DNA of 64,000 nt, from the NCBI GenBank assembly GCA_903944345.1, contig CAJARJ010000021.1, positions 5,528-69,527 on the forward strand. Reading direction: 5' to 3'. Both the position numbers and the translations under genes were made by a program. Of the stretch, positions 3,727 through 57,968 are shown piece after piece; the first letter of the stretch is position 1, and the number at the start of each line of letters is the position of its first letter. The stretch is from Candidatus Omnitrophota bacterium (GTDB taxonomy: Bacteria > Omnitrophota > Gorgyraeia > Zapsychrales > Fredricksoniimonadaceae). The notes beneath the pieces were generated by a model. The model saw only the letters and a list, made by a program, of their open reading frames with translations. It searched no databases and had not been told where the DNA came from.

Positions 3727-3807
3727 TTGCCAGACATTCTACCGACGATTGTGTTTTATTCTAACAATCTCATGGATGCTTGACCAGACTAAATTGTTGT
3801 TTGATAA

Positions 3808-9246: not shown

Positions 9247-10660
9247 GCATGTGTCAGAGAAGGGCGCGTTAATGCGAGTAAGAAGAAAAAAGTTCGCTAT
9301 TCTGCAACTTATTCCCAAGCATCAGAACATGCTGCCGAATCAGTTGGTCAGAGCACTGTCTTTACTCAAATATCATCAGGTCGAATATGCTGTTTATGAT
9401 CTGGAGGCTTCGCTGGAGGCCGAGGCGGGGCAGGCGGTCGCTTCTCTTTTTGCAAAGATCAGGGAAGACGAGGTTGTTGTTTCCCTGGCTTGTCATTACA
9501 ATTATCCCAAATTGACCAGCCTAGTGCTTTTGTTTATGTACCAAGGCCTGTTGAAGGGCAAGCAGATTCATGTGTGTTCGCCGTATCTGTCTTTTTATCC
9601 GGTCAAACAGATTTGTTGCGAGAATATGTTTTTTCATTTTGTCGAGATCGATGAGTTTCTGGTTTCGTATTCAGGGTGGCCTTTTGTAGCTGAGGGCCTG
9701 TTGCTCAAGCCAATGGCTGAAGTTCTACGTGATCAGAATTACACGAATCGTGAATTCTGGACGCATCTGACCTGGGGGTGTCGTTCCTCCTGTTCTTTTT
9801 GTCATAATTGGGCGACAGCCAAGGGCAGAGAGCGGCTTGTCTATTCTGGGTACGATGAGGTGCTTTCCTTGATGCAGACGGCTCGTGCGCTTGGTGCGCG
9901 CAAATTTCAGTTTGCCGATCCTGACTTTCTGGGGGATGCTGCCTATGTTGGAGGGTTTCTTGAAAAGCTGACGGAGGCGGGTGGGTTCTTGCCCTGGCGA
10001 GCCAAGGCAAGGTTAGACAGGATCAATGAGTCAATGTATGAAAAAATGCTTGCTGCGGGGTGTGATCGTATATTCTTTGGTGTGGAGCATGTATCTTCTC
10101 GAATGTTAGACAGGGTCAATAAAGGTGAGAATACTCCGCGGCTGCTTTTGGACTTTATAAAATATTGGGGAACACGCGTGCAGCTCGATGTTTCTTTTCT
10201 CACAGGAATACGTGAAGAGACGGTGTCCGAGTTAAGAGAAAATATTCGTTATATATCCAGAATAGACAAGATTCGCGGGATAGAGGCTTATTTGGGGTAT
10301 GTGATTCTGTATTCCGGGTCTGCACGCAAAGTGGCTTTTAGCGATTATCTGGTGGCCTTTCTGCTGGTTTGCAATATGTTGCCCGAGGAATGGGAAATTG
10401 GGCAGGACTTTCTCAGAAGATTGTTGCAACTCTGTCAGCAAGAGCCCTTTTTTGGCTTTTTTATTCTTACCGAGAATGACCATAGTTTAGCGTTGTTCCA
10501 AGAACTGCTCCGGCAGAATAAGGCGGATATTGCGCCGGATTTTCTTTCAGATTTCGCCAGATTGTGGACATCGGTGGATGGGCGGCTCGCGAAGATTGTT
10601 GCGGGATCAAAGACGACAGGGGAGGTTAACCAAAAGATAGATCAATGGCTACTGAAGTAA
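9233..10660 (+). CDS. B12-binding-domain radical SAM protein (class B rSAM-like); paralog of 19289..20668
   Basis: WGCRSSCSFC cluster motif (CxxxCxFC) after a ~170-aa N-terminal domain consistent with a cobalamin-binding fold. FQFADPDFLGD block shared with the paralog (FKFRDPDFLGV). Confidence 0.65.
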   Translation: MRRPEHVSEKGALMRVRRKKFAILQLIPKHQNMLPNQLVRALSLLKYHQVEYAVYDLEASLEAEAGQAVASLFAKIREDEVVVSLACHYNYPKLTSLVLLFMYQGLLKGKQIHVCSPYLSFYPVKQICCENMFFHFVEIDEFLVSYSGWPFVAEGLLLKPMAEVLRDQNYTNREFWTHLTWGCRSSCSFCHNWATAKGRERLVYSGYDEVLSLMQTARALGARKFQFADPDFLGDAAYVGGFLEKLTEAGGFLPWRAKARLDRINESMYEKMLAAGCDRIFFGVEHVSSRMLDRVNKGENTPRLLLDFIKYWGTRVQLDVSFLTGIREETVSELRENIRYISRIDKIRGIEAYLGYVILYSGSARKVAFSDYLVAFLLVCNMLPEEWEIGQDFLRRLLQLCQQEPFFGFFILTENDHSLALFQELLRQNKADIAPDFLSDFARLWTSVDGRLAKIVAGSKTTGEVNQKIDQWLLK

Positions 10661-12237
10661 AACAAAACAATAAAAGTGGTTTTAGGGTTTCTACAGACGG
10701 CCTCTTTCTGCTGATGCAGCTTTGCGTTGCTTTGGGTGGCGGGCTGATCCTTGCCTGGGCATTAGCTGCCTGGGGAATCGGGATCAATAGTGATTCTGAG
10801 GCGTATCATGTTATGTCCCGGTGTTTGTCGGAGAAAGAGGGAGCTTTTAATGCTGTACCGGATTGTAAAACGCTGTCCCTGCATTTTCCTCCATTGTATC
10901 CGTTGCTAATTTCATTGATGCGTGGCTGGACCGAGAGTTTTATGGAGCGTTCGGCGGGATTGAATGTTTTTCTTTATTCGGGAAGCATTTTTGTTTCCGG
11001 AAGCTTGTTTAAAAGGCTTACCGGCTTGCCGTTTATGGGGCCCGCCGGAGCCCTGCTTGTTGCTGTTGCCCCGGTGGTTGTCAAGGCGCATACGGAAGCC
11101 ATGACTGAGGCCGTGTTTATATTCCTTACGTTGGCCGGCTTGTTCTTCTTTTTATGTTATTTGGAAAGAACCAGTTATTGGCGGTTGCTGGCAGCAGGGG
11201 TTCTCACCGGGTTATCGTTATTGTGCCGTTTTGCCGGACTGACTACCATTTTGGCGATGATGGTGACGATAGTTCTTTTTAAATCGCAACAAAGAAAGCC
11301 AGCGATTTTTGATTCTGTATTTTTTGTGCTGATAGCGTTGATGCCTATGGGGGGGTGGTGGATCAGGAATTTTTTTGATTACGGATTGTCGCTGGATCGG
11401 ATTGTTGTTTTTCATCCGCCAGGATGGTCTGGGTGGAGTGAGGCGTCCGGGGTTTTTTGTATGTGGCTCATGAGTCCGGTTTTCTGTTCTTTTATAAAAG
11501 AGATTGTTTTGTTGCTGGGATTCGTTGTTTTTTTTCTATTCTGCTGGCGGATTGGTAAGGCGCTGGCACTCAGGAACACAAAAGATACGGAAATTTTTCT
11601 TTTTTGGTCTTTTATGGCGGTTATGGCGATCTTGTTTTACCTGATTGGACTGGTGTTGACGATTTCCTGGCTGGACGGGTATATGACTTTGTCGCGAAGG
11701 TATTTGTTGCCGGTTTATGTTTTTGCAATGATCCTTTTTCCGGCATGGTTGCTCAGAAGAACGATCTGTTGCCAGGCGTCAGGCTCCTTGAGAGTGTTTC
11801 TGGGAAAGGTCTTACTTGTCTATTGGGTGTTTTTCAATTGTTCGGTTTCTGTTACCTGGTTGTGGCAGCAGCACTCACGCGGGAGTGGTTATGCGAGCCG
11901 TAACTGGCGGCAATCACCAACGATGCAGGAGCTCTGCCGACTGTCGCGTGAACATGTGATTTTCACCAACCTCAAGGCAGCAGCAGTAATTCATTCGGGT
12001 GCCCGCATATTTGAGATTCCGTGGTTGTCAGATCCGATGAACAGCCGCATGAATGCTCATTACCAGCAAGAACTAGAACAAATGGTGCGGCAGATAAAGG
12101 CGGGTAACGGCCTGCTGGTCTATTTCGATCAAGCTCCGAGTGACTTGCCGATTGAGTCTGCGCAGGTTCTGACGGAACGGTTGTCTTTGCGCATGGTGGC
12201 AAAGTTTGCTGACGGGGCGGTTTATTTGCCGGAATAA
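10645..12237 (+). CDS. GT-C-fold polytopic membrane glycosyltransferase-like protein (ArnT/PMT family-like)
   Basis: 530 aa with ~11-13 TM helices, an acidic first extracytoplasmic loop (INSDSEAYHV) and a ~110-aa hydrophilic C-terminal region, as in GT39/GT83 enzymes. It sits directly upstream of two Thr/Asn-rich secreted repeat proteins. Confidence 0.45.
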   Translation: MATEVKQNNKSGFRVSTDGLFLLMQLCVALGGGLILAWALAAWGIGINSDSEAYHVMSRCLSEKEGAFNAVPDCKTLSLHFPPLYPLLISLMRGWTESFMERSAGLNVFLYSGSIFVSGSLFKRLTGLPFMGPAGALLVAVAPVVVKAHTEAMTEAVFIFLTLAGLFFFLCYLERTSYWRLLAAGVLTGLSLLCRFAGLTTILAMMVTIVLFKSQQRKPAIFDSVFFVLIALMPMGGWWIRNFFDYGLSLDRIVVFHPPGWSGWSEASGVFCMWLMSPVFCSFIKEIVLLLGFVVFFLFCWRIGKALALRNTKDTEIFLFWSFMAVMAILFYLIGLVLTISWLDGYMTLSRRYLLPVYVFAMILFPAWLLRRTICCQASGSLRVFLGKVLLVYWVFFNCSVSVTWLWQQHSRGSGYASRNWRQSPTMQELCRLSREHVIFTNLKAAAVIHSGARIFEIPWLSDPMNSRMNAHYQQELEQMVRQIKAGNGLLVYFDQAPSDLPIESAQVLTERLSLRMVAKFADGAVYLPE

Positions 12238-12408
12238 AACCCGGCTAACTGGAGCATGAGAGGAATAGATATTCGTTATTGTCTGAAATGGTTATATTTA
12301 TAGCATTTCTTGCCTGGGAGCCAGCAAATGTATAGTATTCTTTCAGGAAAGGAGAATGGAAAGCCTTTTCTGTTTTGTCTCTGAGCAGCCAACATTGAGT
12401 GGTCTTGC

Positions 12409-12437
12409 TTGACAGCCTTTCTTGTTGAGTGTTAAAC
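12409..12437 (+). promoter_or_regulatory. Candidate sigma70-like promoter for the repeat-protein genes
   Basis: TTGACA (12409-12414), 17-nt spacer, TTAAAC (12432-12437); the Shine-Dalgarno AAGAGGGG sits ~5 nt upstream of the ATG at 12457. Confidence 0.3.
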
Positions 12438-12456
12438 TTAATCAGAAAGAGGGGTT

Positions 12457-13005
12457 ATGCTCAAACTATTGATTTCCATTGTTTTGTATTTTTTCTCGTG
12501 CGCAGCGGCTTGGTCGGAGGAAATTATTCTGACCACCTTTTATCCGCCCCCTAGCGGGCAGTTTTTGAATCTGACTGTGTTGGGCACTTTGGGTGTAGTG
12601 AACATCAATATTACGGGAACACTGACTATCGCCACTTTAAATGTCACGGGGAATGCTTCAGTTGGTGGAACTTTGAATGCTCGCAATACAACGCTTGGCG
12701 CAACGCTGAACGTGACCGGGGCCACAACTCTTGCCAGCACCCTGAGTGCCGGAGCCACCTCGATTAATGGGACATTGAACGTGAGTGGGCTAACAACGCT
12801 GGGTGCTCTGAGTGCTGCAGCCACCACGGTTAACGGGACTTTGAATGTGACCGGGGCCACCGTAATTACTGGCGCGTTAAATGCTCGGGCGACGACAGTT
12901 AACGGGACTCTGAATGTGAGCGGGGCCATGACCAGTGGTGGGATGTCCGCAGGAGGTTTTACGACAGCGGGGACAACCCAATGCGGTTCTTTGAATCTGT
13001 ATTGA
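12457..13005 (+). CDS. Secreted Thr/Asn/Gly-rich tandem-repeat protein (predicted beta-solenoid and/or glycoprotein)
   Basis: Signal peptide MLKLLISIVLYFFSCAAAWS, then conserved TTFYPPPSGQF, then repeats of the type (A/T)TT(I/V)NGTLNVTG(A/V)TTL. Most Asn lie in N-x-T sequons. Confidence 0.6.
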   Translation: MLKLLISIVLYFFSCAAAWSEEIILTTFYPPPSGQFLNLTVLGTLGVVNINITGTLTIATLNVTGNASVGGTLNARNTTLGATLNVTGATTLASTLSAGATSINGTLNVSGLTTLGALSAAATTVNGTLNVTGATVITGALNARATTVNGTLNVSGAMTSGGMSAGGFTTAGTTQCGSLNLY

Positions 13006-13089: not shown

Positions 13090-13644
13090 ATGGCAAAAAT
13101 CTGGGGTTTACTGCTTTTTATAGTTCTCTCCGCTAGCAGAGCCTGGTCGGATAACCTGGTTTTGACTACATTTTATCCGGCTCCAAACGGGCAGTATTTC
13201 AATATGAATGTAACGGGCACTCTGTCGGCCAATAATCTGACAGTTACCGGAACATTGACCGCTGCCACATTGAATGTGACCGGAAACATGACCGTTGGTG
13301 GTGCATTGAGTGTTACCGGGGCCACAACAATCAACGGGACGTTAAACGTAACGGGGGTCACAACGCTGAATGTTTTGAATGCCCGTAATACAACAATTAA
13401 TGGGACGTTAAACGTAACGGGGGTCACAACCCTTAGCACTCTGATTGCGGCCGCCACAACAATCAACGGGACGCTGAACGTGACCGGGGCCGCAACGCTT
13501 GCCAGCACTCTAAGTGCCGGTGCGACAACGGTGAACGGTGGGCTGGGTGTTACCGGAAATTCGACAGTAGGCGGCACGGTAACTGCCACCGGGTTTACAA
13601 CAGGGGGAACCCTGACGACCAATCGGCTGATTATTTGTCCCTGA
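13090..13644 (+). CDS. Secreted Thr/Asn/Gly-rich tandem-repeat protein, paralog of 12457..13005
   Basis: Start moved to the internal ATG at 13090, which has an AAGGG RBS (track ORF starts at 13009). Signal peptide MAKIWGLLLFIVLSASRAWS; conserved TTFYPAPNGQY; ~22-aa repeats VTGxTTLxxLxAxxTTINGTLN; 13 of ~21 Asn in N-x-T. Confidence 0.6.
   Translation: MAKIWGLLLFIVLSASRAWSDNLVLTTFYPAPNGQYFNMNVTGTLSANNLTVTGTLTAATLNVTGNMTVGGALSVTGATTINGTLNVTGVTTLNVLNARNTTINGTLNVTGVTTLSTLIAAATTINGTLNVTGAATLASTLSAGATTVNGGLGVTGNSTVGGTVTATGFTTGGTLTTNRLIICP
13230..13560. repeat. Intragenic near-identical tandem DNA repeats (~33 and ~66 nt units) encoding the NGTLNVTG repeats
   Basis: The units GGGACGTTAAACGTAACGGGGGTCACAAC and AACGGGACG(C/T)T(A/G)AACGT(A/G)AC(C/G)GGGG recur within 13.3-13.5 kb. 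A similar set lies at 12.6-12.93 kb in the upstream paralog. Confidence 0.55.
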
Positions 13645-13653
13645 TTCCATCAA

Positions 13654-14091
13654 ATGCGGGAGAACTTCATGAAGAAATTATTGCAAACGGCGGGCTGGGT
13701 CAGGCTGCCGGTTCAAACAGCTGTTTATCCTGTGCAGACAATTTATTCTGCCGGGTATGTTTTTCTAGATCGGGCCTATTTCTATCTGGAACCGGATGGC
13801 AAGAATGCTGTGTCCGTATGGATGAGTCCAAAAAAGAAAACAGATGATCTGGAATTGCTGGCCAAGGAGTTTTATCAGGAATTGCTTAATTACGCGCACT
13901 ATTTTATCAGCCTTAAGTCTAATGGAGATCACGTCAGGCTTTTGTTGCAGAGAGCGCTTTTTTCTGCCGCGCCTTCATTGGTCAAGGAGGCTGAAGAGCG
14001 CGAAATTCAGCAACTGATCAAGGAACTGGAGCAGGAGGATTTGTCGGCTTCGAAGAAGAAACAGAGCAAGAAGCCACCCGCTTCGACTTAG
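13654..14091 (+). CDS. Hypothetical protein (possible HxsD-like accessory protein of the maturase cassette)
   Basis: 145 aa, with a hydrophilic, Lys/Glu-rich C-terminus. It is first in the co-directional run 13654 > 14122 > 15092 > 16485 > 16933 with short gaps or overlaps. The functional call rests on position only. Confidence 0.35.
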   Translation: MRENFMKKLLQTAGWVRLPVQTAVYPVQTIYSAGYVFLDRAYFYLEPDGKNAVSVWMSPKKKTDDLELLAKEFYQELLNYAHYFISLKSNGDHVRLLLQRALFSAAPSLVKEAEEREIQQLIKELEQEDLSASKKKQSKKPPAST

Positions 14092-14121
14092 AATTGTACT
14101 TGTAGCAAGCGGGAACGGGAG

Positions 14122-15111
14122 TTGATTATGAGCGTTGCGATTGCCCCGGAGATGCAGAATCTTTTTAGCAGGCCGGCAGAAAAATTTGCCAAAAGAGTGG
14201 TTGTTTTTACAGGATTCAATTGTTCCAATAAATGCTGTTTTTGTGCGGTTGAGTCTAAGCGTCCGGCCGTAGATAAGACGACCGAAGAAGTTCTGCGGGA
14301 GATGGCGCGTGCTTACGAGCGGGGCGCCCGGCAACTGGTGCTTTCCGGAGGGGAATGCACTTTAAGAAAAGATATTGTTGATTTGGTGCGGGCCGCCCGT
14401 CAAAAAGGCTTTGTGGATGTGCATATTCAGAGCAATGGTCGAAGGTTTTCTGATATCGGGTTTTGCAAGGAAATGTTTGCGGCAGGCATGAGTTATCTAG
14501 GGACATCGATTCATGGCCCTAGCGGCGCGGTGCATGATGATTTGACCGCAAGGCCGGGCAGTCTGCGTGAAGTTGTTGAAGGCATTCATAATCTTAAAAG
14601 GCTTGCCCGGGGACGTATTGGCATTGCGATTAACTCGGTCATGGTCCGGCAGAATTTTGCTTTATTACCAGAGACAGCCAGTCTTTTAGTCAGATTACGG
14701 CCGGATTTGCTGCAGTTCGCGTTTGTGCATGCTTGCGGCTTTACAGAAGAGCGTTTCAGAAGATTTGTTCCCAGAAAGACGGACGTTGTTGCCTATGTCA
14801 AGCAGGGAGTAGATATAGCTGTTGGCGCAGGGATTCCGGTTATGGTGGAGGCAATTCCTTACTGTCTTTTGACCGGCTATGAGAAGCATTGTTCGGATCG
14901 GTTTATTCCCTCTACGGATGTGATTGAGCCGGGACGGGAAATTTTGAATTACGAGCAGGTTCGGCTTCGCAGCAGCAAACGCAAGTTTGCCCGTTGCCTG
15001 GACTGTCGTTTTGATGCGATTTGTGAAGGGCCGTGGCAGCAGTATCCTGAGCATTATGGAGATGAGGAATTCCAACCGGTAGAGGCAGAGTATGTCAACC
15101 AGAGAGCTTGA
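14122..15111 (+). CDS. Radical SAM protein (HxsC-like candidate)
   Basis: FNCSNKCCFC cluster motif; SGGECTL SAM-binding block; C-terminal Cys pairs (CLDCRFDAIC). Overlaps the next gene by 20 nt. Confidence 0.75.
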   Translation: MIMSVAIAPEMQNLFSRPAEKFAKRVVVFTGFNCSNKCCFCAVESKRPAVDKTTEEVLREMARAYERGARQLVLSGGECTLRKDIVDLVRAARQKGFVDVHIQSNGRRFSDIGFCKEMFAAGMSYLGTSIHGPSGAVHDDLTARPGSLREVVEGIHNLKRLARGRIGIAINSVMVRQNFALLPETASLLVRLRPDLLQFAFVHACGFTEERFRRFVPRKTDVVAYVKQGVDIAVGAGIPVMVEAIPYCLLTGYEKHCSDRFIPSTDVIEPGREILNYEQVRLRSSKRKFARCLDCRFDAICEGPWQQYPEHYGDEEFQPVEAEYVNQRA

Positions 15112-16501
15112 GTTTTTTGTTGTTCCCTACAACTCGAAGAAAATAGGCCAGCGGCATCTTGTGTCCAACAAGCTAGGCGGGTGGGCTTTTCTTGATCACA
15201 AGGACTTTGCGACGCTTTCTTCTCTGGATTGTCAGCCCGGCACGGAGCTTTTTGAGCGTTTGCGAAACGCCGGGGTGGTGGCGGATGTATCTAATATCGG
15301 GTCTTTGTTGAGCGGTTACCGCAAAATGAACCAGAATCTTTTTTCAGATACCAGTCTGCACATTGCAGTCGTGACGACTCGTTGCAATTTGGCCTGTCAA
15401 TATTGTCAGGCTCGGCCAGAGTCGGGCGAGGATATGTCCCCTGAGGTTGCCTCACGTGTCCTGAAATATCTTTTTGATGTCCGCAATCCTTCGGTCATGC
15501 TGGAATTTCAGGGCGGGGAGCCGCTAATGAATTGGCCGGTTGTTTCTCTTTTAACGGAGCATGCGCGCAAATTCAATACGTCCGGCAAGCAGTTGCAGAT
15601 TGCCATGGTCAGCAATTTCTTATTGTTGACCGAGGAGCAGATCAAGTTTCTTGTCGAGCACGAGGTTAATCTTTGTACGTCTCTGGATGGGCCGGAAGAT
15701 TTACATGATCAGAACCGGAAGGATTGGGCTGGCAAGGGGACTTACAAGGAATTAATGCGCAAAGTGGATCTTGTGCGCAAGAAATTCAACTGGCCGGTGC
15801 ACATGCTTCCGACGATTACCAGAGCTTCGCTCAAACACGCGCGCCGGATTATCGATGAGTATGTGCGTCAGGGGCAGCTGGAAATCTGCCTGCGTCCAGT
15901 GAATGATATGGGGGCGGCGCGTTGTTCCTGGAAGAGTCTGGGATATACGCCGGAAGAGTTTCTTGCTTTCTATCGGGAAGCCTGCGAATATATTTTTGAG
16001 TTGAATCGCAAGGGGATTGCCGTTCGGGAGCGAATGGCCAGAGTTCTTATGACCAAGGCTCTTTTTAAAGAAGATCCGCGCTATGTAGATGTGATGAATC
16101 CCTGTGGGGCCGGCAGAGTGGTTATGACGTATATGCCGGATGGTGGCTGCTTTCCTTGTGACGAAGCCCGGATGGTAGGCGGGGATCTTTTTAAACTGGG
16201 GAATATTTTAAAGGACGACTATAAAGATGTTATTTGTAGTGAGAACCTTTTGAATCTTTTGCAGTCTTCCTGTTCGGATCTTTGGCAAAGCGCTTCAGTT
16301 TACAGCCCTTGGACGGGATATTGTCCGGTCGTTAATTACGCGACTCAGCAGAATGTGATTGCAAAGTCAGCCTGTTCCCAGGCCCAGAGAATTTTGGAGG
16401 GGCAGTTTGATTATCTTTTCGAGAAACTGGAACAGGGTGGGGAAAACGAAATGTTTTTAAGGGAATGGGCGAAAGGAATGGCGCATGAAGAAAAAAAATA
16501 A
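15092..16501 (+). CDS. Radical SAM / SPASM-domain peptide-maturase-like protein (HxsB-like candidate)
   Basis: TTRCNLACQYCQ preceded by a ~90-aa N-terminal extension that may bind the precursor; GGEPLMN block. C-terminal auxiliary-cluster Cys pattern CGAGRVV...DGGCFPCDE...WTGYCPV...CS, typical of SPASM enzymes (anSME- and sactisynthase-like). Overlaps the start of the first precursor. Confidence 0.8.
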   Translation: MSTRELEFFVVPYNSKKIGQRHLVSNKLGGWAFLDHKDFATLSSLDCQPGTELFERLRNAGVVADVSNIGSLLSGYRKMNQNLFSDTSLHIAVVTTRCNLACQYCQARPESGEDMSPEVASRVLKYLFDVRNPSVMLEFQGGEPLMNWPVVSLLTEHARKFNTSGKQLQIAMVSNFLLLTEEQIKFLVEHEVNLCTSLDGPEDLHDQNRKDWAGKGTYKELMRKVDLVRKKFNWPVHMLPTITRASLKHARRIIDEYVRQGQLEICLRPVNDMGAARCSWKSLGYTPEEFLAFYREACEYIFELNRKGIAVRERMARVLMTKALFKEDPRYVDVMNPCGAGRVVMTYMPDGGCFPCDEARMVGGDLFKLGNILKDDYKDVICSENLLNLLQSSCSDLWQSASVYSPWTGYCPVVNYATQQNVIAKSACSQAQRILEGQFDYLFEKLEQGGENEMFLREWAKGMAHEEKK

Positions 16502-16916
16502 TCAGCAGCAAGCGCGCCCGAGAATTCCGCGTTCTCTGAGGCTATTTATCCGGGATGAAGAGGGGTTTGTCAGCAAAGAAACTATTTTGAATGTCGGATT
16601 GACGGCGATAGGTGTGGTCGGGCTGTTGGGAATTTCTTCTGATGTGGTCAATGCCGCGCACTCCAGTCACGCTTCACATTCCAGTTCCGGTGGCGAACAT
16701 GGCAGCACGACAATACCGGGGACAAGCTATGCCATGACCGCGCATATTAATGATGTTGTCTATCCCGCTACACCGGCCGGAGGATCCTGCATGGAGCTAA
16801 GTCCACCGACGCATTCCAATGTTGCGGCAACGCATTGCAACCGGGCGGCTGTGCATGGAAGCTCCATATCAACGCATACGAATGTTACGCCGCATGCAAA
16901 TCATGACTCGTATTAG
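16485..16916 (+). CDS. His-rich precursor-like protein A1 (His-Xaa-Ser/Asn triplets; HxsA-like)
   Basis: 143 aa. Basic N-region MKKKNNQQQARPRIPRSLRLFIRDEEGFVSKET, hydrophobic segment ILNVGLTAIGVVGLLGI, a VNA|AHS site, then a core AHSSHASHSSSGGEHG...GGSCMEL...THCN...HANHDSY with 11 His in 88 aa and 2 Cys. Confidence 0.65.
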   Translation: MKKKNNQQQARPRIPRSLRLFIRDEEGFVSKETILNVGLTAIGVVGLLGISSDVVNAAHSSHASHSSSGGEHGSTTIPGTSYAMTAHINDVVYPATPAGGSCMELSPPTHSNVAATHCNRAAVHGSSISTHTNVTPHANHDSY

Positions 16917-16932
16917 CAAAGCGAGAGGATAT

Positions 16933-17355
16933 ATGAAAATAGACAAGACCAAAAGCAGGATTTTCAAGGCCCCGCGGACGCTAAAAGGATTTCTTGACGG
17001 AGAAGATGGCTATGTCAGCAAGGAAGCTATTTTGAATGTCGGATTGGCCACGATTGGCGTTTTGGGGGTGATGGGATCTTTTTCCGACCCGGCTTATGCC
17101 GCGCACAGCAATCATGGTTCGCATAGCAATGGAGCCGGGACTTTTCATGCCAATGCCTCGGCAGGGCATGTCAATACGGCTGTGGCGCATAGTAATCTGC
17201 AGCATTATGATGATTTCCCATCCGGTGGGTGCCGCGAGTTGCTGCCGGATCACAACAATATTGCTGCGGCGCATTGCAATGTTGGGGCCACGCATTCCAA
17301 CATTCCGGGCACACATGGCAACACCAGCGGGCACGCCAATCATTCCTCGTATTGA
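16933..17355 (+). CDS. His-rich precursor-like protein A2, paralog of A1
   Basis: Start placed at the ATG at 16933, which has a GAGAGGA RBS (track ORF 16819 is a spurious 5' extension overlapping A1). N-region and hydrophobic segment ILNVGLATIGVLGVMG are near-identical to A1; AYA|AHS site; core AHSNHGSHSNGAG...GGCREL...AHCN...HANHSSY with 13 His in 87 aa and 2 Cys. Confidence 0.65.
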   Translation: MKIDKTKSRIFKAPRTLKGFLDGEDGYVSKEAILNVGLATIGVLGVMGSFSDPAYAAHSNHGSHSNGAGTFHANASAGHVNTAVAHSNLQHYDDFPSGGCRELLPDHNNIAAAHCNVGATHSNIPGTHGNTSGHANHSSY

Positions 17356-17426: not shown

Positions 17427-18398
17427 ATGGATTTTCCATATCTTGATTCTGCTGATACCCCTCAGATTGCGGCATTATGGCTCAGGAACAATTATGCGCC
17501 CGCCGTTCCTCGAACCCAATTGATCGAGCATATTCGCTGGAAATATGATTCCCGACGAGCTGTGATTTACAGCCAAAGGGAAGAGGGCCGGATTTTTGCC
17601 ACAACAGGCTACTTAAAGGGATCTTTCTGCAATGGAAACAGCATTTTTAGTATTGGTTGGGGCATGGACTCTCTGATTGATGAGCCGTTAAGAGATGGTC
17701 GTGTGTTTGCCTTTATGCGTGTATTGCGCTCTACCATGCGTTCTGCCGAGCACGAAATTCTGGTTGCTTTTGCCAACAAGAACGTTCACGACACCTATTT
17801 ACGGATTGGTTTCCAGCCTTGGAATGGTTTTTTCTTTTATCAGGCAAAGCTGCAAGCCGGGATGGTGCTGCCAGTTCGACCCGACAGGGGGTTTGATCTT
17901 TTATGGAAAGATGAGCTGGATGTGTCGGGGGCTGAAGCTCTGTTCAGGCGAACGCAGGGGTTTTATCAGGGGATCAGTCCGAGAGACAAGGAATATCTGG
18001 ACTGGCGTTATGGTCAATGTCCTTTTCGTCGGCATGTGTTTCTGCATGTTTATCGGCAAAGGGTTTTGGTTGGATATTGTGCGGTACGCTTTGTTTTGCA
18101 ACCGGAATCGCGGACAGGCTATATTGTGGATCTTCTGGATTCTCCCGACGATGATGCCGTGCTGGAGGTTATGTTGCTGGAGCTTATGGCACGTTGCCGG
18201 CAGCGAGAAATTGCGCAGATCGAAACTGTTTTGACGAATGGGCGGATTTCACAGGGACTGTTGCGTTGTGGATTTTTTCGGCAGCAGCAGGAAACTGTGT
18301 TGGTGTGGCTGAAGAGTGACCGGGCACGCAGGTTTTTTGAACAGGGTTCGACAGGCATGCATTTGACGATGAGTGACGGCGATTATGATATGGAATAA
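17427..18398 (+). CDS. Hypothetical protein, possibly a GNAT-fold / FemAB-like acyltransferase
   Basis: 323 aa. The C-terminal half has a GNAT-like topology (VGYCAVRF...GYIVDLL...LELMARCRQREIAQIE); I recognised no diagnostic motif. Confidence 0.3.
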   Translation: MDFPYLDSADTPQIAALWLRNNYAPAVPRTQLIEHIRWKYDSRRAVIYSQREEGRIFATTGYLKGSFCNGNSIFSIGWGMDSLIDEPLRDGRVFAFMRVLRSTMRSAEHEILVAFANKNVHDTYLRIGFQPWNGFFFYQAKLQAGMVLPVRPDRGFDLLWKDELDVSGAEALFRRTQGFYQGISPRDKEYLDWRYGQCPFRRHVFLHVYRQRVLVGYCAVRFVLQPESRTGYIVDLLDSPDDDAVLEVMLLELMARCRQREIAQIETVLTNGRISQGLLRCGFFRQQQETVLVWLKSDRARRFFEQGSTGMHLTMSDGDYDME

Positions 18399-19296
18399 GT
18401 TAGGTAGTGGGCAAGGTTCGCAATGGCCCCGGAAGGAGAAGAGTATGGTTGGCGTTCACCGCAAGCCGCTGGATATAGAAGAAATGATGACAACGTGCGG
18501 CGGGTTTGTACGCTATTTTGGCACCAATGAACCGGTGTCGCATATTGCCAGTGTCCTGGAGAAAACAGTATTCCGTCGGGTTTTGGCTTGCTGTGGAGGA
18601 GGGGATCAGGCTTTGACATTGCTCGGGCTGGCGGGGCGCCCTTCAGAAATTTATGCGTTTGACATGAATCTGGCGCAGCTGTTTGTTCTGGCCTGCAAGG
18701 CCCAGCTCTTCAAGGATAAGAAAATGAAGACGTATGCTCCTTCTTTCGATCGGATCAGCCGGTTGAACATGGGAAGAATTCGCGCCCTTCCTAATGATGT
18801 TCGGCCCGTGGATACGCTGCTGACTATTCCAGGAGAAAGAAAGATTGCGCTGGAACATGTTTTTGCCGGCCGGTTTGGCTACGAGGTCGACACCGGGATG
18901 CACGATTTTCTCAAGAAGAATATTTACTGGGCAGATGATGCGCGTTTTATTTCCAGGATTCGTTCCGGATTGCCGGCGCTTAAAGGAATTCATTGTGATT
19001 TGCTTTCCTTGTCGGACTGGTTTGCGCCGGATTATCTCGATGTGATATATGTGTCGGATATCCCTTTGCACAATGCTATTCCTTATTATCTGGAAAGACT
19101 GCGTTGCCTGGTGGATTGTCTGGCGCCGGGTGGATTGTTTATTGGCAATCTGGAGGATCAGGCGGTTCTGGATCGCTGCCCGTCGGTGATTGAGGTGATG
19201 CGCAGTTATAAGGATTTGTTCGGGTTAGTGGAGTTCAGGAAAACAGGACAAATTCTGGCTTTACGCAAGGTGCGGCCTGTCAGAAGTATTGGATAA
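18373..19296 (+). CDS. DUF3419 / BtaA-like class-I SAM-dependent protein (paralog of 8413..9246)
   Basis: GGFVRYF, VLACCGGGDQALTLLGLAG, AFDMNLAQLFVL and LDVIYVSDIP blocks. Confidence 0.45.
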   Translation: MTAIMIWNKLGSGQGSQWPRKEKSMVGVHRKPLDIEEMMTTCGGFVRYFGTNEPVSHIASVLEKTVFRRVLACCGGGDQALTLLGLAGRPSEIYAFDMNLAQLFVLACKAQLFKDKKMKTYAPSFDRISRLNMGRIRALPNDVRPVDTLLTIPGERKIALEHVFAGRFGYEVDTGMHDFLKKNIYWADDARFISRIRSGLPALKGIHCDLLSLSDWFAPDYLDVIYVSDIPLHNAIPYYLERLRCLVDCLAPGGLFIGNLEDQAVLDRCPSVIEVMRSYKDLFGLVEFRKTGQILALRKVRPVRSIG

Positions 19297-20668
19297 AAGA
19301 ACGATGCCCCGAGAAATTGCTGTCATTTTTTTTGCGCAGGATGACCGTGTTGTGCCGGTGGATTTGGTTGAGGCCATTGCCTGGTTGGAACAGTCGGGAA
19401 TCAGGCACAAGCTTTACATGCCGGCACGCGGGAAAAGAGGCAGCTGGCGGCAAGCTGTTGCTGAAACTTTGAGCGGAGTCCAGGCGGATGAAGTGTTTGT
19501 ATGTTTTTTGAATGAAAATCATTATCTGGCAACAGCGTCTTTACTTCAGCTGGTCTTTTGTGCAGAGTTTCTCGGGGATAGAGATATTCATGTCTGCCTG
19601 CCGGCTTTAAGTTTGTTTAGGGGGCGGCCTGCGTTGCGGGGGCGTTTTGTCTGGCACGCAAAGAAACTGACGCAGGTTCTTGGTGAACGGCTGGACGGGT
19701 TGAAAAAAGAGCGGTTATTCTCACCGGAAGTCCTTGCCGATGTCACGGTTCGTCTCGGATACAGAAGACAGATCCTTTCGGCTCTCTGGTCGCCGGGGTG
19801 CGGGCACAGCTGTTCGTTTTGTTTTTCCCGTGACAACGGAGAAATGATTGAGCCTGATGCCGGCATTCGTCAGGAAAAACTAGTTTTTCTGCTTGAGCTG
19901 GCGCGTTTAACCGAAGCAAGTTGTTTTAAATTTCGTGATCCTGACTTTCTGGGAGTTCCCGCTAACGCCTGGGAGGCGTTGCGGATTCTTGGTTCTGTCG
20001 CTCCGGGTACAGCGTTTAGATGTAACGCACGACTGGAAGACCTCAATAGAGAGGCACTTGTGCGTCTTGCGGACGCCGGATGCTCCCAGGTATTTTCCGG
20101 TGTGGAGCATGTTTCGATGCGCCTGGTGGAGGCGACAGGAAAACAGGAGAAAGTTCTCGGTCTATTAGCGGGCGTGTTGGCCCATAAACCCCGCAAGATG
20201 GATCTTGCCTTGTCTTTTCTGGCCGGCCTTCCGGGAGAGACCTTGCCGGAGGCGAAGGATAATTTGTGTTTGATCAGGAAGTTAATGAAGTTGAAGGGGG
20301 TTAAACCATATCTTGGGTATTATGTTTTGTTTGCCCAAGAGGTCCGGTCAGGGGCTTTTTTCGATCCCTTGCTGGCTTGCCTGAATTTTTCGGCGATTGT
20401 TCCCGAGGGCATGTTTCTGGATTATCAGGATTATTGTGGCCTGCTAAAGACAGTTAGAGAAGATGCTTTTTTCAGTTTTTTTGCTGCTGCCCTTAATCGA
20501 AACAGCGCTGAGGTTATTCGAATGTTGCTGCGCGAATTTAGCGCGGACGCATGCTTGTCTGAGTGCATGCCGATGGCTAGAAAACTGCTTCTGTTGCGCC
20601 CGGAGCTGGCCAATAGAATAATGAGTGAGCTTGGTGCGCCAACGTTTTTGTGCAGGGGGGCTGTGTGA
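19289..20668 (+). CDS. B12-binding-domain radical SAM protein (paralog of 9233..10660)
   Basis: PGCGHSCSFC cluster motif after a ~165-aa N-terminal domain; FKFRDPDFLG and FSGVEHVSMRL blocks shared with the paralog. Confidence 0.65.
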   Translation: MDKRTMPREIAVIFFAQDDRVVPVDLVEAIAWLEQSGIRHKLYMPARGKRGSWRQAVAETLSGVQADEVFVCFLNENHYLATASLLQLVFCAEFLGDRDIHVCLPALSLFRGRPALRGRFVWHAKKLTQVLGERLDGLKKERLFSPEVLADVTVRLGYRRQILSALWSPGCGHSCSFCFSRDNGEMIEPDAGIRQEKLVFLLELARLTEASCFKFRDPDFLGVPANAWEALRILGSVAPGTAFRCNARLEDLNREALVRLADAGCSQVFSGVEHVSMRLVEATGKQEKVLGLLAGVLAHKPRKMDLALSFLAGLPGETLPEAKDNLCLIRKLMKLKGVKPYLGYYVLFAQEVRSGAFFDPLLACLNFSAIVPEGMFLDYQDYCGLLKTVREDAFFSFFAAALNRNSAEVIRMLLREFSADACLSECMPMARKLLLLRPELANRIMSELGAPTFLCRGAV

Positions 20669-27381: not shown

Positions 27382-28584
27382 TTAAGGTTTCAGGATTTCG
27401 ATGGTGCGGGCTGTTCCGGTAAACCATTCTTGCGGCGGCGCGGGAAAGTTTCCAGGTTTTTCGCATTTCTCTCGTATTGCTGCTGCCAGTGTTGCGGGTT
27501 CCAGTTCGTGATAGTTAAGGACAGTGCTGTTGATCCGTTCCTTGAGTAACAGGGCCCGGGATTGCTGGTCGTTGGCGGGTTCATTCTGGGTTTTATTAAT
27601 ATATGGAACGATTATGCTTTGCGTTCCCGAGGTCAATAGTTGTACGGAAGTGTTGTAGCCGCACATGCTGATTGACAGCTGGCAGGAGCGCATGAGTTGA
27701 GCCAGTCCGGGGACGTGGTCAAAGAGGCGGATGCGGCTGCGATCCGATAAAGACAGGCAGGCCTCGAAGAGTTTTTTTTCTTCAGGGGTTGTTGAGGGAC
27801 CGCAGGCGATGGTCATGCGATACTTTTCACCCAGATGCTTGTGCGCCCGGATGGCACAGGCAATTATATTAGGGTAAACCGCCCCGCCCCCCCGGCTGAT
27901 AACAATATGATATGGTGCCGGATGCGGCCAATTAATGATTTGTGGCGGGCAGGGATCTTCAGCTGGAAGGACATAGCCGGTATAAGTGATTTTATCCCGG
28001 ATACGTTCAAAGAACTGGTCGTAGCCTGTCTGCAATTCGGGTTTTGCCAGAACTGTTCGAAGATAAGGATTTTCCAGTTGAGGAGGGGTGTGGATCAGCA
28101 ACTGGTCATAGAGGCCGATCAGGCGTATGGTCAGATCCATATCGCCCGACTTGGCCAGATTATAGATTTGAATCAGAAAAGGATAGCCGATACTGGCATA
28201 GATTTTTTTTCCGCATTGGCGTAGATGGCGTAAGGCCGGCAGCAGTTCCGGCGTGTAGTCCGCCCGTCCGAAAGGAAAAAATTCGGTTACGAAGATGTCA
28301 GGATTAACACTGCGGACTGTTTTCATAACGAACTCGCAGCGCAGGGGCAGAGATGTTGCGCTGCGCCCGCCGTGGAAGCTGAGTCGGGAATCGAATGGAT
28401 AAGGAATTGGGTGCAGGCCAACATTCTTTGGAAAGCGGATTGCGGGTTGCTCGGTTCCGGCCTGCAGAAGATGCACGCGGACTCCTGCCCGGGAGAGTCC
28501 ATGGCAGAGGGCGTGAACCCGGGTGCTGTGTCCCAGAGTGCCTTTGTGGGTGTAGTGAATCAGTACCGAGGGTTTCTTTTGCAT
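27382..28584 (-). CDS. GT1-family glycosyltransferase (MurG/MGT-like fold)
   Basis: Start placed at the internal M (MQKKPSVLIHYTHKGTLGHSTR), which gives the Gly/His-rich N-terminal loop typical of GT-B GT1 enzymes. The 448-aa track ORF would otherwise overlap the divergent CorC gene. Confidence 0.5.
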   Translation of the reverse strand: MQKKPSVLIHYTHKGTLGHSTRVHALCHGLSRAGVRVHLLQAGTEQPAIRFPKNVGLHPIPYPFDSRLSFHGGRSATSLPLRCEFVMKTVRSVNPDIFVTEFFPFGRADYTPELLPALRHLRQCGKKIYASIGYPFLIQIYNLAKSGDMDLTIRLIGLYDQLLIHTPPQLENPYLRTVLAKPELQTGYDQFFERIRDKITYTGYVLPAEDPCPPQIINWPHPAPYHIVISRGGGAVYPNIIACAIRAHKHLGEKYRMTIACGPSTTPEEKKLFEACLSLSDRSRIRLFDHVPGLAQLMRSCQLSISMCGYNTSVQLLTSGTQSIIVPYINKTQNEPANDQQSRALLLKERINSTVLNYHELEPATLAAAIREKCEKPGNFPAPPQEWFTGTARTIEILKP

Positions 28585-28707
28585 GTTATCGGAATGTTGA
28601 TTACAATGATGCAACAGCTTGCTGTACGAACGGTTTGATCGGAGCCCCCCGATAATTATAGAGCTTGAGTTTAATTCTATATATTTAGAACAAGGAACAT
28701 TGGAATC

Positions 28708-30042
28708 ATGATAAACAGTTTTGCGCAAATTGTCATAATCTTTTTGATGTTGTTGTTAAATGCCGTATTTGCTGCGTATGAAATGGCTCTGGCCTCTGTT
28801 TCCCAGTCCCGGCTTAACGCTTTATCTGCTCGTCAGGTCAAGGGCGGAGCGGAGGCCGCATTTATGAAGTCCAGGATTGAGGCCAGCCTGGCAGTTATCC
28901 AGATGGGGATTACCCTGGTGGCCGCGATTGCAGCGGCAACCGGGGGGTTGAGTGCAGTGGATTCTTTTGCTCCGTGGCTGGTGAAAGAGCTTGGCTGGCA
29001 CAAGACCCTGGCCGGAATGGTGGCGGTGATTATTGTTGTAATTCCCCTGAGCAGCGTAACGATTATTTTTGCCGAGCTGGTTCCCAAAATGCTTGCGCTT
29101 AACTATCGTGAGCGAGTGTGTTTGCGGCTGTCACCATTGATGAAAAGGCTTTTTCTTTTCTTGCATCCGGTGGTCAATGTATTTGAGCGGATTGTCAAAT
29201 GGCTGGTGCAGGCAGGAAGCAGACATTTCCCCGGACGTTCGTCTGCAGAAGAGTCCCCTGGACTGCATGAACTTCAGGCTGCTGCGGCTTTGGCGCGAAC
29301 GGCACGCCTGATCGGAGCACATCAGGAGAAAATTCTTTTGTCCGCGGCCCAGCTGTCTGCCCGGCAGGTGCGGGAGATACTTATCCCTTTATCGGAAGTG
29401 TCAACTATTCCGTCGACATTTACGCTCAGTCAGGCTTTGGTTCGGGCGCATCTGGATATGCACACCCGGTTTCCTGTCTGTCGGCAGGAAGGCGATTCTC
29501 AGAGTATCGACGGGTATGTGAATTTCAAGGATATTATTTCGGCCTTGCGCCTGAATCCGGAAGATCCTTCGGTTTGCGGGATTGTCCGGCCGCTCAAGAG
29601 CGTTGAGGCAGAACGCACCATTTCTGCGGTTCTGGAAATCATGATTCAGGAAAAGATGCACATTATTCTGGTTTGTTCGCGAGGTGGCCGGTATCTGGGA
29701 ATTGTGACGCTTGAGGATATTATTGAGGAATTGGTCGGAGAGATCGAGGATGAGTTTGATCGTCTGCCGGCCTATATTCATGCCTTTGCCGGAGGCTGGA
29801 TTGTTGGCGGGGGAACTTTAATGGAAAATATTTCCGGCGCGGCGGGTTTGTCCGGGACATTTCTCCCGGGAGAGCGCCTGGCCGATTGGTGTCTGCGACA
29901 GATCCCCGGAGGCAATCTTGAGGGTGGGCAGACGATCGAGGCCGATGGGTTGCGTGTAAGCTTGCGCAAGTTTCGCCGGCATAAGGTTAGTGAAGCGGCG
30001 ATTGCGCGGACACGTGAGGGAATAAAGGATGCACGGATGTAG
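28708..30042 (+). CDS. CorC/HlyC (TlyC) family transporter-like protein: DUF21/CNNM TM domain + CBS pair + CorC_HlyC domain
   Basis: N-terminal 4-TM DUF21 (AAYEMALASVSQSRL), a CBS-pair region (GIVTLEDIIEELVGEIEDEFD), and a C-terminal transporter-associated domain. Confidence 0.8.
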   Translation: MINSFAQIVIIFLMLLLNAVFAAYEMALASVSQSRLNALSARQVKGGAEAAFMKSRIEASLAVIQMGITLVAAIAAATGGLSAVDSFAPWLVKELGWHKTLAGMVAVIIVVIPLSSVTIIFAELVPKMLALNYRERVCLRLSPLMKRLFLFLHPVVNVFERIVKWLVQAGSRHFPGRSSAEESPGLHELQAAAALARTARLIGAHQEKILLSAAQLSARQVREILIPLSEVSTIPSTFTLSQALVRAHLDMHTRFPVCRQEGDSQSIDGYVNFKDIISALRLNPEDPSVCGIVRPLKSVEAERTISAVLEIMIQEKMHIILVCSRGGRYLGIVTLEDIIEELVGEIEDEFDRLPAYIHAFAGGWIVGGGTLMENISGAAGLSGTFLPGERLADWCLRQIPGGNLEGGQTIEADGLRVSLRKFRRHKVSEAAIARTREGIKDARM

Positions 30043-53663: not shown

Positions 53664-53738
53664 TCCTAAAGCAGGACCCCATGGGGGGCTTTGTTTCGTG
53701 GGGCAGAGATCCGGGCTAACACACAGTCGGGAATATGT

Positions 53739-57818: not shown

Positions 57819-57968
57819 GATCCCCACTTTGTGTAGACCCTTCTTTCGGGCGGGTTTCTATGCGAAAATGCTGTGGATTTACCGGGAATTATTTGAACAG
57901 ATATGCTATTTTATCCCTGCGCACGCTTTGTTCCGGATTTTTTGTTAGCGATACGGGGTAAATGGTTT

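Follow-up and report, generated by a model that had tools for sequence, protein, structure and literature searches.

Does a His-Xaa-Ser (HXS) maturation system exist in Omnitrophota, and what would it be made to produce there? The question is raised by five genes at positions 13654-17355 of a 64,000-nucleotide stretch of DNA (contig CAJARJ010000021.1; this whole stretch is called the window below), which appears to be chromosomal DNA of an Omnitrophota bacterium. The four protein families encoded by these genes are homologous to HxsD, HxsC, HxsB, and the HxsA3-type precursors, and the genes form one tightly coupled unit. We conclude that the cassette is probably a divergent HXS maturation system, of a type that is common in Omnitrophota. 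By analogy, it most likely works like the canonical system at the enzymatic level: from what is known of the family, in the cytoplasm the two radical S-adenosylmethionine (SAM) enzymes, helped by HxsD, would covalently modify the His triplets of the two precursors, A1 and A2.

The HXS system has been described as an antiphage system. In E. coli, 110 of 113 phages are warded off by HxsD-HxsB-HxsC-HxsA, which blocks the entry of their DNA (Li et al. Nat Commun 2026, PMC13128918). Defence depends on all four genes; the periplasmic effector is HxsA, which carries five basic HxS repeats besides a signal peptide and a peptidoglycan-binding domain (PMC13128918). Further, the N-terminal cleavage of HxsA requires HxsB, HxsC, and HxsD, HxsC binds HxsD, and a radical SAM-dependent modification of +8 Da was found on SHRSS in the last HxS repeat (PMC13128918). 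The first-pass annotation of the window, made from the sequence alone, held the chemistry of HXS systems to be still unknown, a statement that is outdated given the reported mass shift, N-terminal processing, and antiphage function. Almost all described HXS systems (99.7%) are from Pseudomonadota, and 99.6% have the gene order D-B-C-A (PMC13128918).

Composition of the Cassette and Identity of Its Enzymes

The members of the cassette are as follows.

13654..14091, + strand: HxsD-like small accessory protein, 145 amino acids
14122..15111, + strand: HxsC-like radical SAM enzyme, 329 amino acids (327 from the alternative ATG at 14128)
15092..16501, + strand: HxsB-like radical SAM/SPASM enzyme, 469 amino acids
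16485..16916, + strand: precursor A1, 143 amino acids, member of a family found after HxsB in 53 loci
16933..17355, + strand: precursor A2, paralog of A1, 140 amino acids, from the ATG at 16933

The five co-directional open reading frames (ORFs) described in the first-pass annotation are all present on the + strand, overlapping or closely spaced in the order D-C-B-A1-A2, with 30 nucleotides between D and C, overlaps of 20 (C/B) and 17 nucleotides (B/A1), and a gap of 16 nucleotides between A1 and A2. For the HxsD-like gene, gene callers on identical contigs favour the ATG at 13669, which gives a protein of 140 amino acids. The ATG of A2 at 16933 is preceded at 5-8 nucleotides by a GAGAGGA ribosome-binding site, and the homology of the A2 leader to A1 and all relatives begins there; on these grounds a 178-amino-acid ORF starting at 16819 was rejected as the A2 gene.

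The best NCBIfam model for every cassette protein is an Hxs model (HxsD, HxsC4 or HxsC, HxsB, and HxsA3), which supports the placement of the four protein types in the first-pass annotation. The range of models that it named, TIGR03976-TIGR03979, was the right one, with the difference that HxsD corresponds to TIGR03976, HxsC to TIGR03977, HxsB to TIGR03978, and HxsA to TIGR03979. Its gene-order argument holds insofar as the components stand together in one unit, the order itself being D-C-B-A-A and not the canonical one, and its suggestion of a divergent or new subfamily agrees with the position of every Hxs score below the curated cutoff.

The HxsB-like protein comes closest to its cutoff. 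It scores 368.9 bits (E 3.5e-110) against TIGR03978, 1.1 bits under the cutoff of 370, with residues 11-460 aligned to model positions 2-466, and it is 29-34% identical to annotated plasmid HxsB proteins over the full length. Its CX3CX2C motif (C98/C102/C105) lies behind an N-terminal extension of about 90 residues; in Pfam, Radical_SAM, Fer4_12, and a weak SPASM match were found. The protein also resembles the PapB, QhpD, and SCIFF maturases (108-127 bits in NCBIfam). Thioether chemistry, to which these next-best matches would point, was set aside as the general HxsB reaction, since the canonical HxsA and HxsA2 sequences that were read contain no Cys; it may apply to the conserved Cys of the Omnitrophota-type subfamily.

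The top two NCBIfam models for the HxsC-like protein are HxsC4 (NF038332; 131.4 bits, E 4e-38, cutoff 500, residues 21-320 on positions 11-335 of the 335-position model) and HxsC (TIGR03977; 95.5 bits, E 2.5e-27, cutoff 267.9). Alignment reveals a seven-Cys pattern common to this protein and canonical HxsC, made up of the CX3CX2C motif (C34/C38/C41) and of C248, C292, C295, and C301, the latter four being conserved in 11 of 11 orthologs and in the canonical HxsC of the Aeromonas and Nostoc plasmids.

The HxsD-like protein scores 35.2 bits (E 1.2e-8, cutoff 50) against TIGR03976, and the identical gene has a precomputed match to PF27806:HxsD, unmarked, that is, with E ≤1e-5. Its alignment with canonical HxsD runs through ELLNYAHYF / LLNDYxLRE, and the protein carries an extra charged C-terminal tail of about 40 amino acids; orthologs were found upstream of HxsB in 59 loci.

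In public annotation, the exact HxsB-like protein is already called 'His-Xaa-Ser system radical SAM maturase HxsB' and the 145-amino-acid form of its small neighbour 'HxsD' (JGI), the HxsC-like protein is listed as MoaA, and A1 and A2 are each a 'hypothetical protein'. Missing or wrong annotation is thus limited to the precursors and HxsC.

Precursors A1 and A2

In A1, a leader rich in K and R is followed by RDEEG↓FVSKE (here and below, the arrow marks a putative point of cleavage), a hydrophobic segment, AHSSHASHSSS (residues 57-67), four THxNxxx heptads, and finally HDSY at the C-terminus. A2 is apparently an old paralog of A1, since the two are 47% identical (BLASTP E 8e-36). Against HxsA3 (NF038309, cutoff 65), A1 scores 39.9 bits (E 2.7e-10) and A2 33.2 bits (E 3.3e-8).

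After the hydrophobic segment, all 11 His of A1 (86 residues) and 12 of the 13 His of A2 (84 residues) stand in H-x-[S/N] triplets. Shuffling of the same residues gives 2.5 such triplets on average for A1 and 3.2 for A2, and the observed counts were reached in none of 20,000 trials, which bears out the first-pass description of precursors built from these triplets. The two Cys that it reported are present in each core, and so are the three tandem units, HSS-HAS-HSS in A1 and HSN-HGS-HSN in A2. The further triplets, which it took to be dispersed, are in fact four THxNxxx heptads ending in HANH-D/S-SY; the His spacing is correspondingly 3,3 where the core begins on its N-terminal side, and it changes to 7,7,7,6,3 close to the C-terminus. 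The net charge of both cores is -4, with one K/R each, as compared with +4 over 25-35 residues in canonical HxsA repeat regions.

A gene homologous to A1 and A2, encoding 74-145 amino acids, directly follows HxsB in 53 related loci, almost every one of which has an Omnitrophota label or was binned with that phylum. Alignments of 42 and 53 sequences yielded a consensus with a K-rich N-terminus...F-[ILM]-K-D-E-[DES]-G-F-V-S-K-E-x-I-L-K-[VI]-G-L-x-T-[VI]-[AS]-A-L-G in the N-terminal part, and with H-x-[SN] motifs...one Cys...H-T-N-x-x-x-H-x-S-Y-COOH in the C-terminal part. No variation was seen in the Gly of DExG, in a second Gly within the hydrophobic stretch, or in the His of the C-terminal H-x-S-Y, whereas conservation of the Cys and of the final Ser and Tyr is 90% or higher. 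HxsA3 is matched by all 42 aligned members (lowest E 2.9e-13). No other member of the family is as long as A1 and A2, which have an insertion of about 45 amino acids that multiplies the terminal heptad and adds the second Cys; this long form is common only to near-identical relatives (79-88% identity).

The family comprises about 189 clusters at 90% identity, nearly all of them labelled 'hypothetical protein' and one named HxsA4, and a full profile search retrieved 749 representatives (50% identity) at E ≤1e-3. These observations point to a large, almost unannotated precursor family, mostly from Omnitrophota, with a leader that resembles that of prepilins.

Distribution in Omnitrophota

The cassette recurs in dozens of other genomes, as the first-pass annotation would expect of a real system. 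More than 120 HxsB homologs with 47-60% identity were found, mostly in metagenome-assembled genomes of 'Candidatus Omnitrophica/Omnitrophota', and many of them are named HxsB. Scanning of one genome per GTDB species with an HxsB alignment produced 80 loci, of which approximately 57 bear an Omnitrophota label or were binned with that phylum, while the rest come from Elusimicrobiota and others. In about 50 of the Omnitrophota-labelled or co-binned loci, HxsD, HxsB, and an A-like gene stand side by side. Both counts include the complete genome of Ca. Velamenicoccus archaeovorus, whose A ortholog is BU251_04190. The conserved core of the Omnitrophota-type loci consists of HxsD (about 140 amino acids), HxsB, and then the precursor gene.

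Identical cassette genes occur on metagenome contigs of 104-311 kb, and the rest of the window contains housekeeping genes such as those for IlvD, glycogen phosphorylase, branching enzyme, polyphosphate kinase, and Nqr. The nearest relative locus, L015, was considered as a guide to the architecture of the window and discarded, as it has HxsB, an A24 peptidase, and an extra radical SAM gene, and lacks HxsD, HxsC, and a precursor. In locus L060, HxsD-HxsB is present as an exact tandem duplicate (428-4742).

In loci L072-L087, labelled Elusimicrobia/Elusimicrobiota or unclassified bacterium, HxsB homologs with 37-40% identity are found without HxsD or an A-like precursor. At least in L072, L075, L077, and L081, the gene directly after the HxsB homolog encodes a secreted Cys-rich protein of about 375 amino acids (family F373), and several of these loci also have a GT28-like gene. 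The F373 proteins may represent a different class of substrates for the same enzyme family.

HxsC and the Tandem His Array

A true HxsC ortholog (E <1e-80) adjoins HxsD/HxsB in only nine loci, the window included. All ten precursors from these nine loci have H-x-x-H-x-x-H within 16 residues of the hydrophobic segment (AHSSHASHSS in A1, AHSNHGSHSN in A2), as compared with only two of the 46 precursors from loci that have HxsD and lack HxsC. The association is significant by the Fisher test both per peptide (p = 1.9e-9) and per locus with near-identical loci collapsed (p = 5.7e-7). One of the two exceptions is an outgroup; the other is L023, where HxsC is broken into pieces of 61 and 41 amino acids (9579-9907) and the precursor keeps its tandem His array. 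In the neighbor-joining tree of HxsB, at least three separate groups of HxsC-positive loci can be told apart, each beside HxsC-negative groups, and therefore the association arose or was lost repeatedly. HxS runs at the C-terminus exist without HxsC, for instance ...HSSHSSHSSY in L052.

From this pattern we infer a division of labour between the two enzymes. HxsB and HxsD would be the universal core, acting on the C-terminal module (Cys...H-x-N heptads...H-x-S-Y-COOH), and HxsC would be an add-on that acts on the tandem HxxHxxHxN array just past the hydrophobic segment. A proposal based on docking, in which an HxS repeat is the target of HxsC-HxsD, is in line with this assignment (PMC13128918). 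Most Omnitrophota loci, with HxsD and HxsB alone and a minimal precursor (88-91 amino acids in L010 or L027), thus offer a natural dissection of the enzyme roles, and the presence of HxsC only alongside the tandem HxxHxxH array gives a direct hypothesis as to which enzyme modifies which motif.

Leader Peptide and Export of the Precursors

The Gly of the leader motif DExG↓F (G27) is invariant in the 42 as well as in the 53 aligned sequences, and the hydrophobic segment ILNVGLTAIGVVGLLG then follows. Among representatives of the superfamily, 132 of 139 keep the acidic-Gly motif. The residue at position +5 is acidic in A1 (FVSKE) and A2 (YVSKE), and it is E or D in most Omnitrophota members. A similar arrangement is seen in five annotated Flp pilins, which read RFL[KR][DN]ESG↓ATAIEYGLIAGLIAV. 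When the precursor alignment was compared with these pilins by hhalign, a probability of 84.7% (E 6.7e-6, 39 columns) was obtained in the register FlkDEdG↓fVSKE = FlrdEsG↓ATAIEY, in which the invariant Gly coincides with the Gly after which Flp is cleaved, and the conserved E/D with Glu+5 of Flp.

Further, a Peptidase_A24 gene was found within about 5 kb of the precursor in 24 of the 32 loci with at least 6 kb of downstream flank, for instance in L019 (13857-14879, the precursor being at 11377-11661). Pfam scores of this peptidase family are 43.7 and 29.4 bits against a gathering score of 26.5, with one marginal case at 24.6, and of the 28 full-length copies, 27 or 28 retain the two catalytic Asp motifs, [ST]D...I.N and GDxKL. 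Since the other conserved neighbours carry ordinary Sec signal peptides, the precursor is the only plausible A24 substrate nearby. The A24 gene is usually overlapped by a co-oriented radical SAM/SPASM gene of about 430 codons, the pair being convergent to the Hxs operon (L019, L023, L046, L051, L062, L065, L068, and L015); the product of this gene has only generic SPASM matches in NCBIfam and no ortholog in the window.

On this evidence we tentatively, and with somewhat less than even confidence, regard the leader of A1 and A2 as prepilin-like, of the Flp type (class III signal peptide). The modified A proteins would then enter the membrane via this leader, an A24 peptidase would cleave after the invariant Gly, and the His-rich domain, probably cross-linked and possibly glycosylated, would be displayed outside the cytoplasmic membrane. 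The three steps taken together, entry, cleavage, and display, are put forward with the same reserve as the nature of the leader.

A number of observations weigh against the readings given so far. All Hxs scores of the cassette proteins lie below curated cutoffs, and the gene order is D-C-B-A-A instead of D-B-C-A; A1 and A2 have no match to TIGR03979 in NCBIfam and no Pfam domain at E ≤0.1, the peptidoglycan-binding domain included; their modification is taken from family knowledge; and what ties HxsC to the tandem array is a correlation across related genomes. As for the leader, the residue at +5 is acidic in only 66 of the 132 motif-bearing representatives of the wider HxsA3/A4-like superfamily, and Pfam Flp_Fap (PF04964) is matched by none of the 42 family members even at E 10, a level at which the family gives scattered chance matches only and none to PG_binding. 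No A24 peptidase gene is present in the 64-kb window, and no pilus-assembly genes (ATPase, platform) are found among the conserved neighbours of the loci. Finally, the hydrophobic segment is short and ends in small residues (VNA↓A, AYA↓A) that suit signal peptidase I.

The last point leads to the strongest alternative, which we nevertheless hold to be unlikely. The precursors could be Sec-exported proproteins that signal peptidase I cuts at VNA↓AHSS and AYA↓AHSN, yielding soluble cross-linked His-rich peptides, periplasmic or secreted, that would bind metals such as Ni, Cu, or Zn; the conserved acidic motif of the leader would then be a docking site for HxsD or HxsB. Enzymes of the radical SAM/SPASM type that act on peptides made by the ribosome and modified after translation (RiPPs) commonly recognise a motif in the leader. 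Beyond +9, the hydrophobic stretch measures only about 15 residues, many of them Gly, Ala, and Ser, and is followed by a small-x-small pattern in A1, A2, and the HxsC-positive group. The missing A24 gene in the window, the plain signal peptides of canonical HxsA and HxsA2, and a content of 11-13 His in about 85 residues, typical of metal-binding proteins, fit this explanation as well. On the other hand, Sec signal peptides are not marked by an invariant Gly after acidic residues, in three quarters of the loci with sufficient flank the precursor is accompanied by an A24 peptidase whose catalytic motifs are intact and is itself the sole neighbour with a prepilin-like N-terminus, and the hhalign comparison sets the leader in register with Flp prepilins.

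If the prepilin-like reading of the leader is carried one step further, the Hxs enzymes would mature a hitherto unrecognised class of pilin-like surface proteins in Omnitrophota, namely Flp-type prepilins cross-linked by radical SAM enzymes and processed by A24 peptidases. Each would have a short His-rich ectodomain, probably glycosylated, on which the C-terminal HxN/HxSY module would be the work of HxsB and the tandem HxS array that of HxsC; the products would be polymerised by the Tad/type IV machinery of these host-dependent nanobacteria or be kept as membrane-anchored spikes. We offer this extension as a speculation that is more probably wrong than right. Tad and type IVa pili are widespread in Omnitrophota (PMC10066038), and the biology of the phylum appears to depend on cell-cell attachment. 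If true, this would be the first link of radical SAM peptide chemistry to pilin-type surface proteins: the radical SAM 'RiPP chemistry' would be a pilin-modification system, and the HxsA3/A4-type proteins in general would have to be reinterpreted.

Genomic Neighborhood and Possible Functions

The features around the cassette that are relevant for its function are listed here.

1104-1856: DUF2334 deacetylase-like gene of the surrounding cluster
10645-12237: GT-C glycosyltransferase of the cluster
12409..12438, + strand: candidate promoter of the U1-U2-hxsD-C-B-A1-A2 unit, TTGACA-18-TAAACT, extended TG, 10/12 matches; weak evidence
12457..13005, + strand: U1, secreted repeat protein, 182 amino acids, signal peptide and TLNVTG-type repeats; a probable accessory or cargo, not a proven part of the system
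13090..13644, + strand: U2, paralog of U1, 184 amino acids according to gene callers, ending 9-24 nucleotides before the HxsD start
17427..18398, + strand: D1, conserved neighbour, 323 amino acids, 71 nucleotides after A2; F335 family hidden Markov model (HMM), E 1.4e-97
23149-24261: DegT/PseC-type sugar aminotransferase of the cluster
27382..28728, - strand: GT28-like glycosyltransferase at the far end of the cluster; F405 family HMM, E 3e-113; Glyco_tran_28_C, 36.5 bits

The cassette lies inside a long, almost entirely co-directional cluster (about 1.1-28.7 kb) with at least nine radical SAM genes and three AsnB-like amidotransferases. None of the radical SAM, amidotransferase, aminotransferase, glycosyltransferase, and deacetylase-like genes of the cluster reaches an NCBIfam cutoff. 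Subsets of the cluster genes recur beside Hxs cassettes in L015, L019, L027, L043, L046, and L051, and several of them are also found beside the cassette in distant Omnitrophota, including V. archaeovorus. Of the 32 related loci with sufficient flank, 21 contain a member of the F405 glycosyltransferase family.

U1 and U2 contain 12 N-x-S/T sequons each, compared with shuffle means of 4.2 and 5.5, respectively. They have a conserved LTTFYPxPxGQ after the signal peptide, a Cys near the C-terminus, and weak bactofilin-like (beta-helix) matches. U1 is a weak match to the HMM of family F152 (E 1.2e-7), U2 matches it with E 2.1e-8, and F152 relatives with the TTYYPAPYGVY motif stand upstream of HxsD in 14 of the 32 related loci. 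The radical SAM/AsnB-like/glycosyltransferase cluster, the recurrence of F405, and the sequon-rich secreted U1 and U2 make the setting look like envelope or glycoconjugate biogenesis rather than a defence island.

D1 homologs follow the precursor in about ten related loci. D1 has no Pfam or NCBIfam match, a profile search of the PDB with its family produced tubulin noise and a faint GNAT match (E 0.29), and its single-sequence AlphaFold2 model was unusable (mean predicted local distance difference test score 35). The candidate promoter sits in the sole sizeable upstream intergenic gap (12238-12456), before U1; in scans of the region, counts of promoters and terminators were at chance level, and promoter-like sites were not above chance. 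An Rfam scan of the window found no RNA family at the gathering score and no rRNA.

This neighbourhood bears on the proposal that the cassette is an antiphage system like that of E. coli, with matured A1 and A2 blocking phage DNA entry in the periplasm, which we hold to be improbable, slightly more so than Sec export of metal-binding peptides. The homology of all four component families to HXS, and the export-type N-terminus and tandem HxS units of A1 and A2, are as expected for such a system. The published model, however, needs a peptidoglycan-binding domain, which A1 and A2 lack, and basic DNA-binding HxS repeats, whereas their cores are acidic. The surrounding genes are for housekeeping and glycan biosynthesis (radical SAM enzymes, AsnB-like, DegT, glycosyltransferases, polyphosphate, glycogen, Nqr), with the same neighbours in distant Omnitrophota, and PADLOC reports only generic viperin-type radical SAM similarity, its 2023 library having no HXS model.

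Because A1 and A2 are without a peptidoglycan-binding domain and have a core charge of -4 versus +4, the mechanism published for E. coli does not transfer to them; a role in defence as such is possible. The modified precursors may serve to defend the envelope, as they do in E. coli, to mediate adhesion, or to bind metals, and we consider metal binding or adhesion by a cross-linked His-rich module at least as likely as a defence role.

Release of a small diffusible RiPP, a bacteriocin or signalling peptide, from A1 and A2 is very improbable. A radical SAM/SPASM enzyme beside small leader-bearing precursors is the classic layout of such systems, and HxsB resembles PapB, QhpD, and SCIFF maturases; yet neither the cassette nor its conserved neighbours include a C39 peptidase/ABC exporter or another leader protease or transporter, the precursors, at 88-143 amino acids, are long and have an internal hydrophobic segment, and the conserved element is the extreme C-terminus (HxSY), with a repetitive core in place of a short defined core peptide. 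Equally far-fetched is the idea that A1 and A2 are not substrates and that the radical SAM enzymes act on U1/U2, which lie immediately upstream of HxsD, or on a non-protein substrate of a cluster so rich in radical SAM and sugar-modifying enzymes, as U-like genes are missing from most loci and neither U1 nor U2 has His triplets, whereas in nearly all loci HxsB is followed by an A-like gene, the A proteins match HxsA3, and their repeat architecture co-varies with HxsC.

Some other features of the region and of related loci were observed. A two-gene module is present on both sides of the cassette (8413-10660 and 18373-20668), consisting of a gene for a protein of 277 or 307 amino acids with a faint DUF3419 match, followed by one for a radical SAM enzyme of 475 or 459 amino acids resembling PhpK, ApyD, and AprD4; the two copies match each other by phmmer with E 1e-40 and 2e-47. 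An ORF of about 75 codons (family F77, MSxPFLKK...) stands between HxsD and HxsB/HxsC in 19 of the 32 related loci, for instance L014 (8840-9073), and is absent from the window; F77 has no family match, and its interpretation as a truncated HxsD paralog was rejected (hhalign probability 1.5%). Secreted Cys-rich proteins of about 260-270 amino acids with no known domain (families F259 and F270) follow the precursor in 26 of 32 loci, for instance L007 (1805-2590) and L018 (11685-12515), and the window has none.

The GC skew is positive in every 2-kb bin of the window from 1 to 64000 (0.09-0.26), and the long ORFs are nearly all on the + strand, which is consistent with one replichore with a strong gene-strand bias. 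Two adjacent large ORFs, 49395-53663 (1422 amino acids) and 53691-57818 (1375 amino acids), have either no Pfam match or a faint one to PPDK_N (36 bits); they were considered as rpoB/rpoC and rejected, as no such domains were found. They are followed by a gene (57903-58505) for a 200-amino-acid protein with two PG_binding_1 domains.

Comparison with Known Systems

The chemistry of the Omnitrophota cassette can be compared with that of triceptides, where the radical SAM/SPASM enzymes HaaB, HtkB, and YhhB join His-C2 to the C-beta of the third residue in HAA, HNR, and HTK (PMC11499958). The cassette has in common with them repeated aromatic-X-X triplets with His in the first position and a maturase of the SPASM type, and by analogy a cross-link from His-C2 to C-beta(X3) is plausible for the H-x-S/N triplets. 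Triceptide precursors, in contrast, are short soluble peptides, and the only mass measured for an Hxs product is +8 Da, not -2 Da. Scores of the HxsB-like protein against models of such maturases are below the cutoffs (YhhB 66.6/445, GrrM/OscB 69.9/310, AmcB 62.5/425, and FxsB 56.8/370 bits).

With Flp/type IVb (Tad) prepilins, whose A24 peptidases are of the TadV/CpaA type, the precursors share F-[LI]-K/R-D-E-x-G↓x-x-x-x-E and, after it and in matching register, a hydrophobic helix, a mature size of 55-70 amino acids in the short family members, and a nearby A24 gene in most related loci. They differ from Flp prepilins in having a polar K/N at +9 and a His-rich C-terminal domain paired with radical SAM enzymes, in lacking a Flp_Fap match and adjacent Tad assembly genes, and, in the window, in the absence of A24.

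Also among the closest described relatives are the NCBIfam variants HxsA3 (NF038309), HxsA4 (NF038313), and HxsC4 (NF038332). The HxsA3 and HxsA4 proteins likewise have a basic N-terminus, an acidic motif ending in Gly, a hydrophobic segment, and H-x-S repeats, and an Omnitrophota protein named HxsA4 (P0199) has the same leader architecture; HxsC4, of about 330 amino acids, aligns end to end with the HxsC-like protein. Differences are that the scores are far under the cutoffs and that the precursors of the window add the heptad insertion and the second Cys.

Compared with the HXS system of E. coli, Klebsiella, and other Pseudomonadota, the window contains the same four families in one operon, two radical SAM enzymes that both carry an additional Cys cluster, and a precursor of the exported kind in which H-x-S units stand in tandem. 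The canonical arrangement is seen, for instance, on an Aeromonas plasmid, where the order is D-B-C-A and HxsA carries HRSHRSHSSHRSHSSHRSHYS and a peptidoglycan-binding tail, while a Nostoc plasmid has the layout hxsA2...D-B-C. In the window, by contrast, two precursors without a peptidoglycan-binding domain follow the enzymes; three tandem repeats and H-x-N heptads take the place of five repeats; the core is acidic, not basic; the leader resembles that of Flp prepilins instead of a plain signal peptide; a conserved HxSY forms the C-terminus; HxsD exceeds the canonical one by about 45 amino acids; and the host appears to belong to Omnitrophota, not Pseudomonadota, with a glycan/radical SAM cluster as the context.

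The main value of the locus is comparative: it adds to the HXS systems a large unannotated precursor family and a testable assignment of HxsB and HxsC to different motifs. The effector half of HXS systems is plastic, and here it comes with a prepilin-like leader, an acidic core, and A24 peptidase and glycosyltransferase partners. Because of this plasticity, the antiphage model of a basic, peptidoglycan-anchored HxsA should not be carried over automatically to all 'Hxs' annotations.

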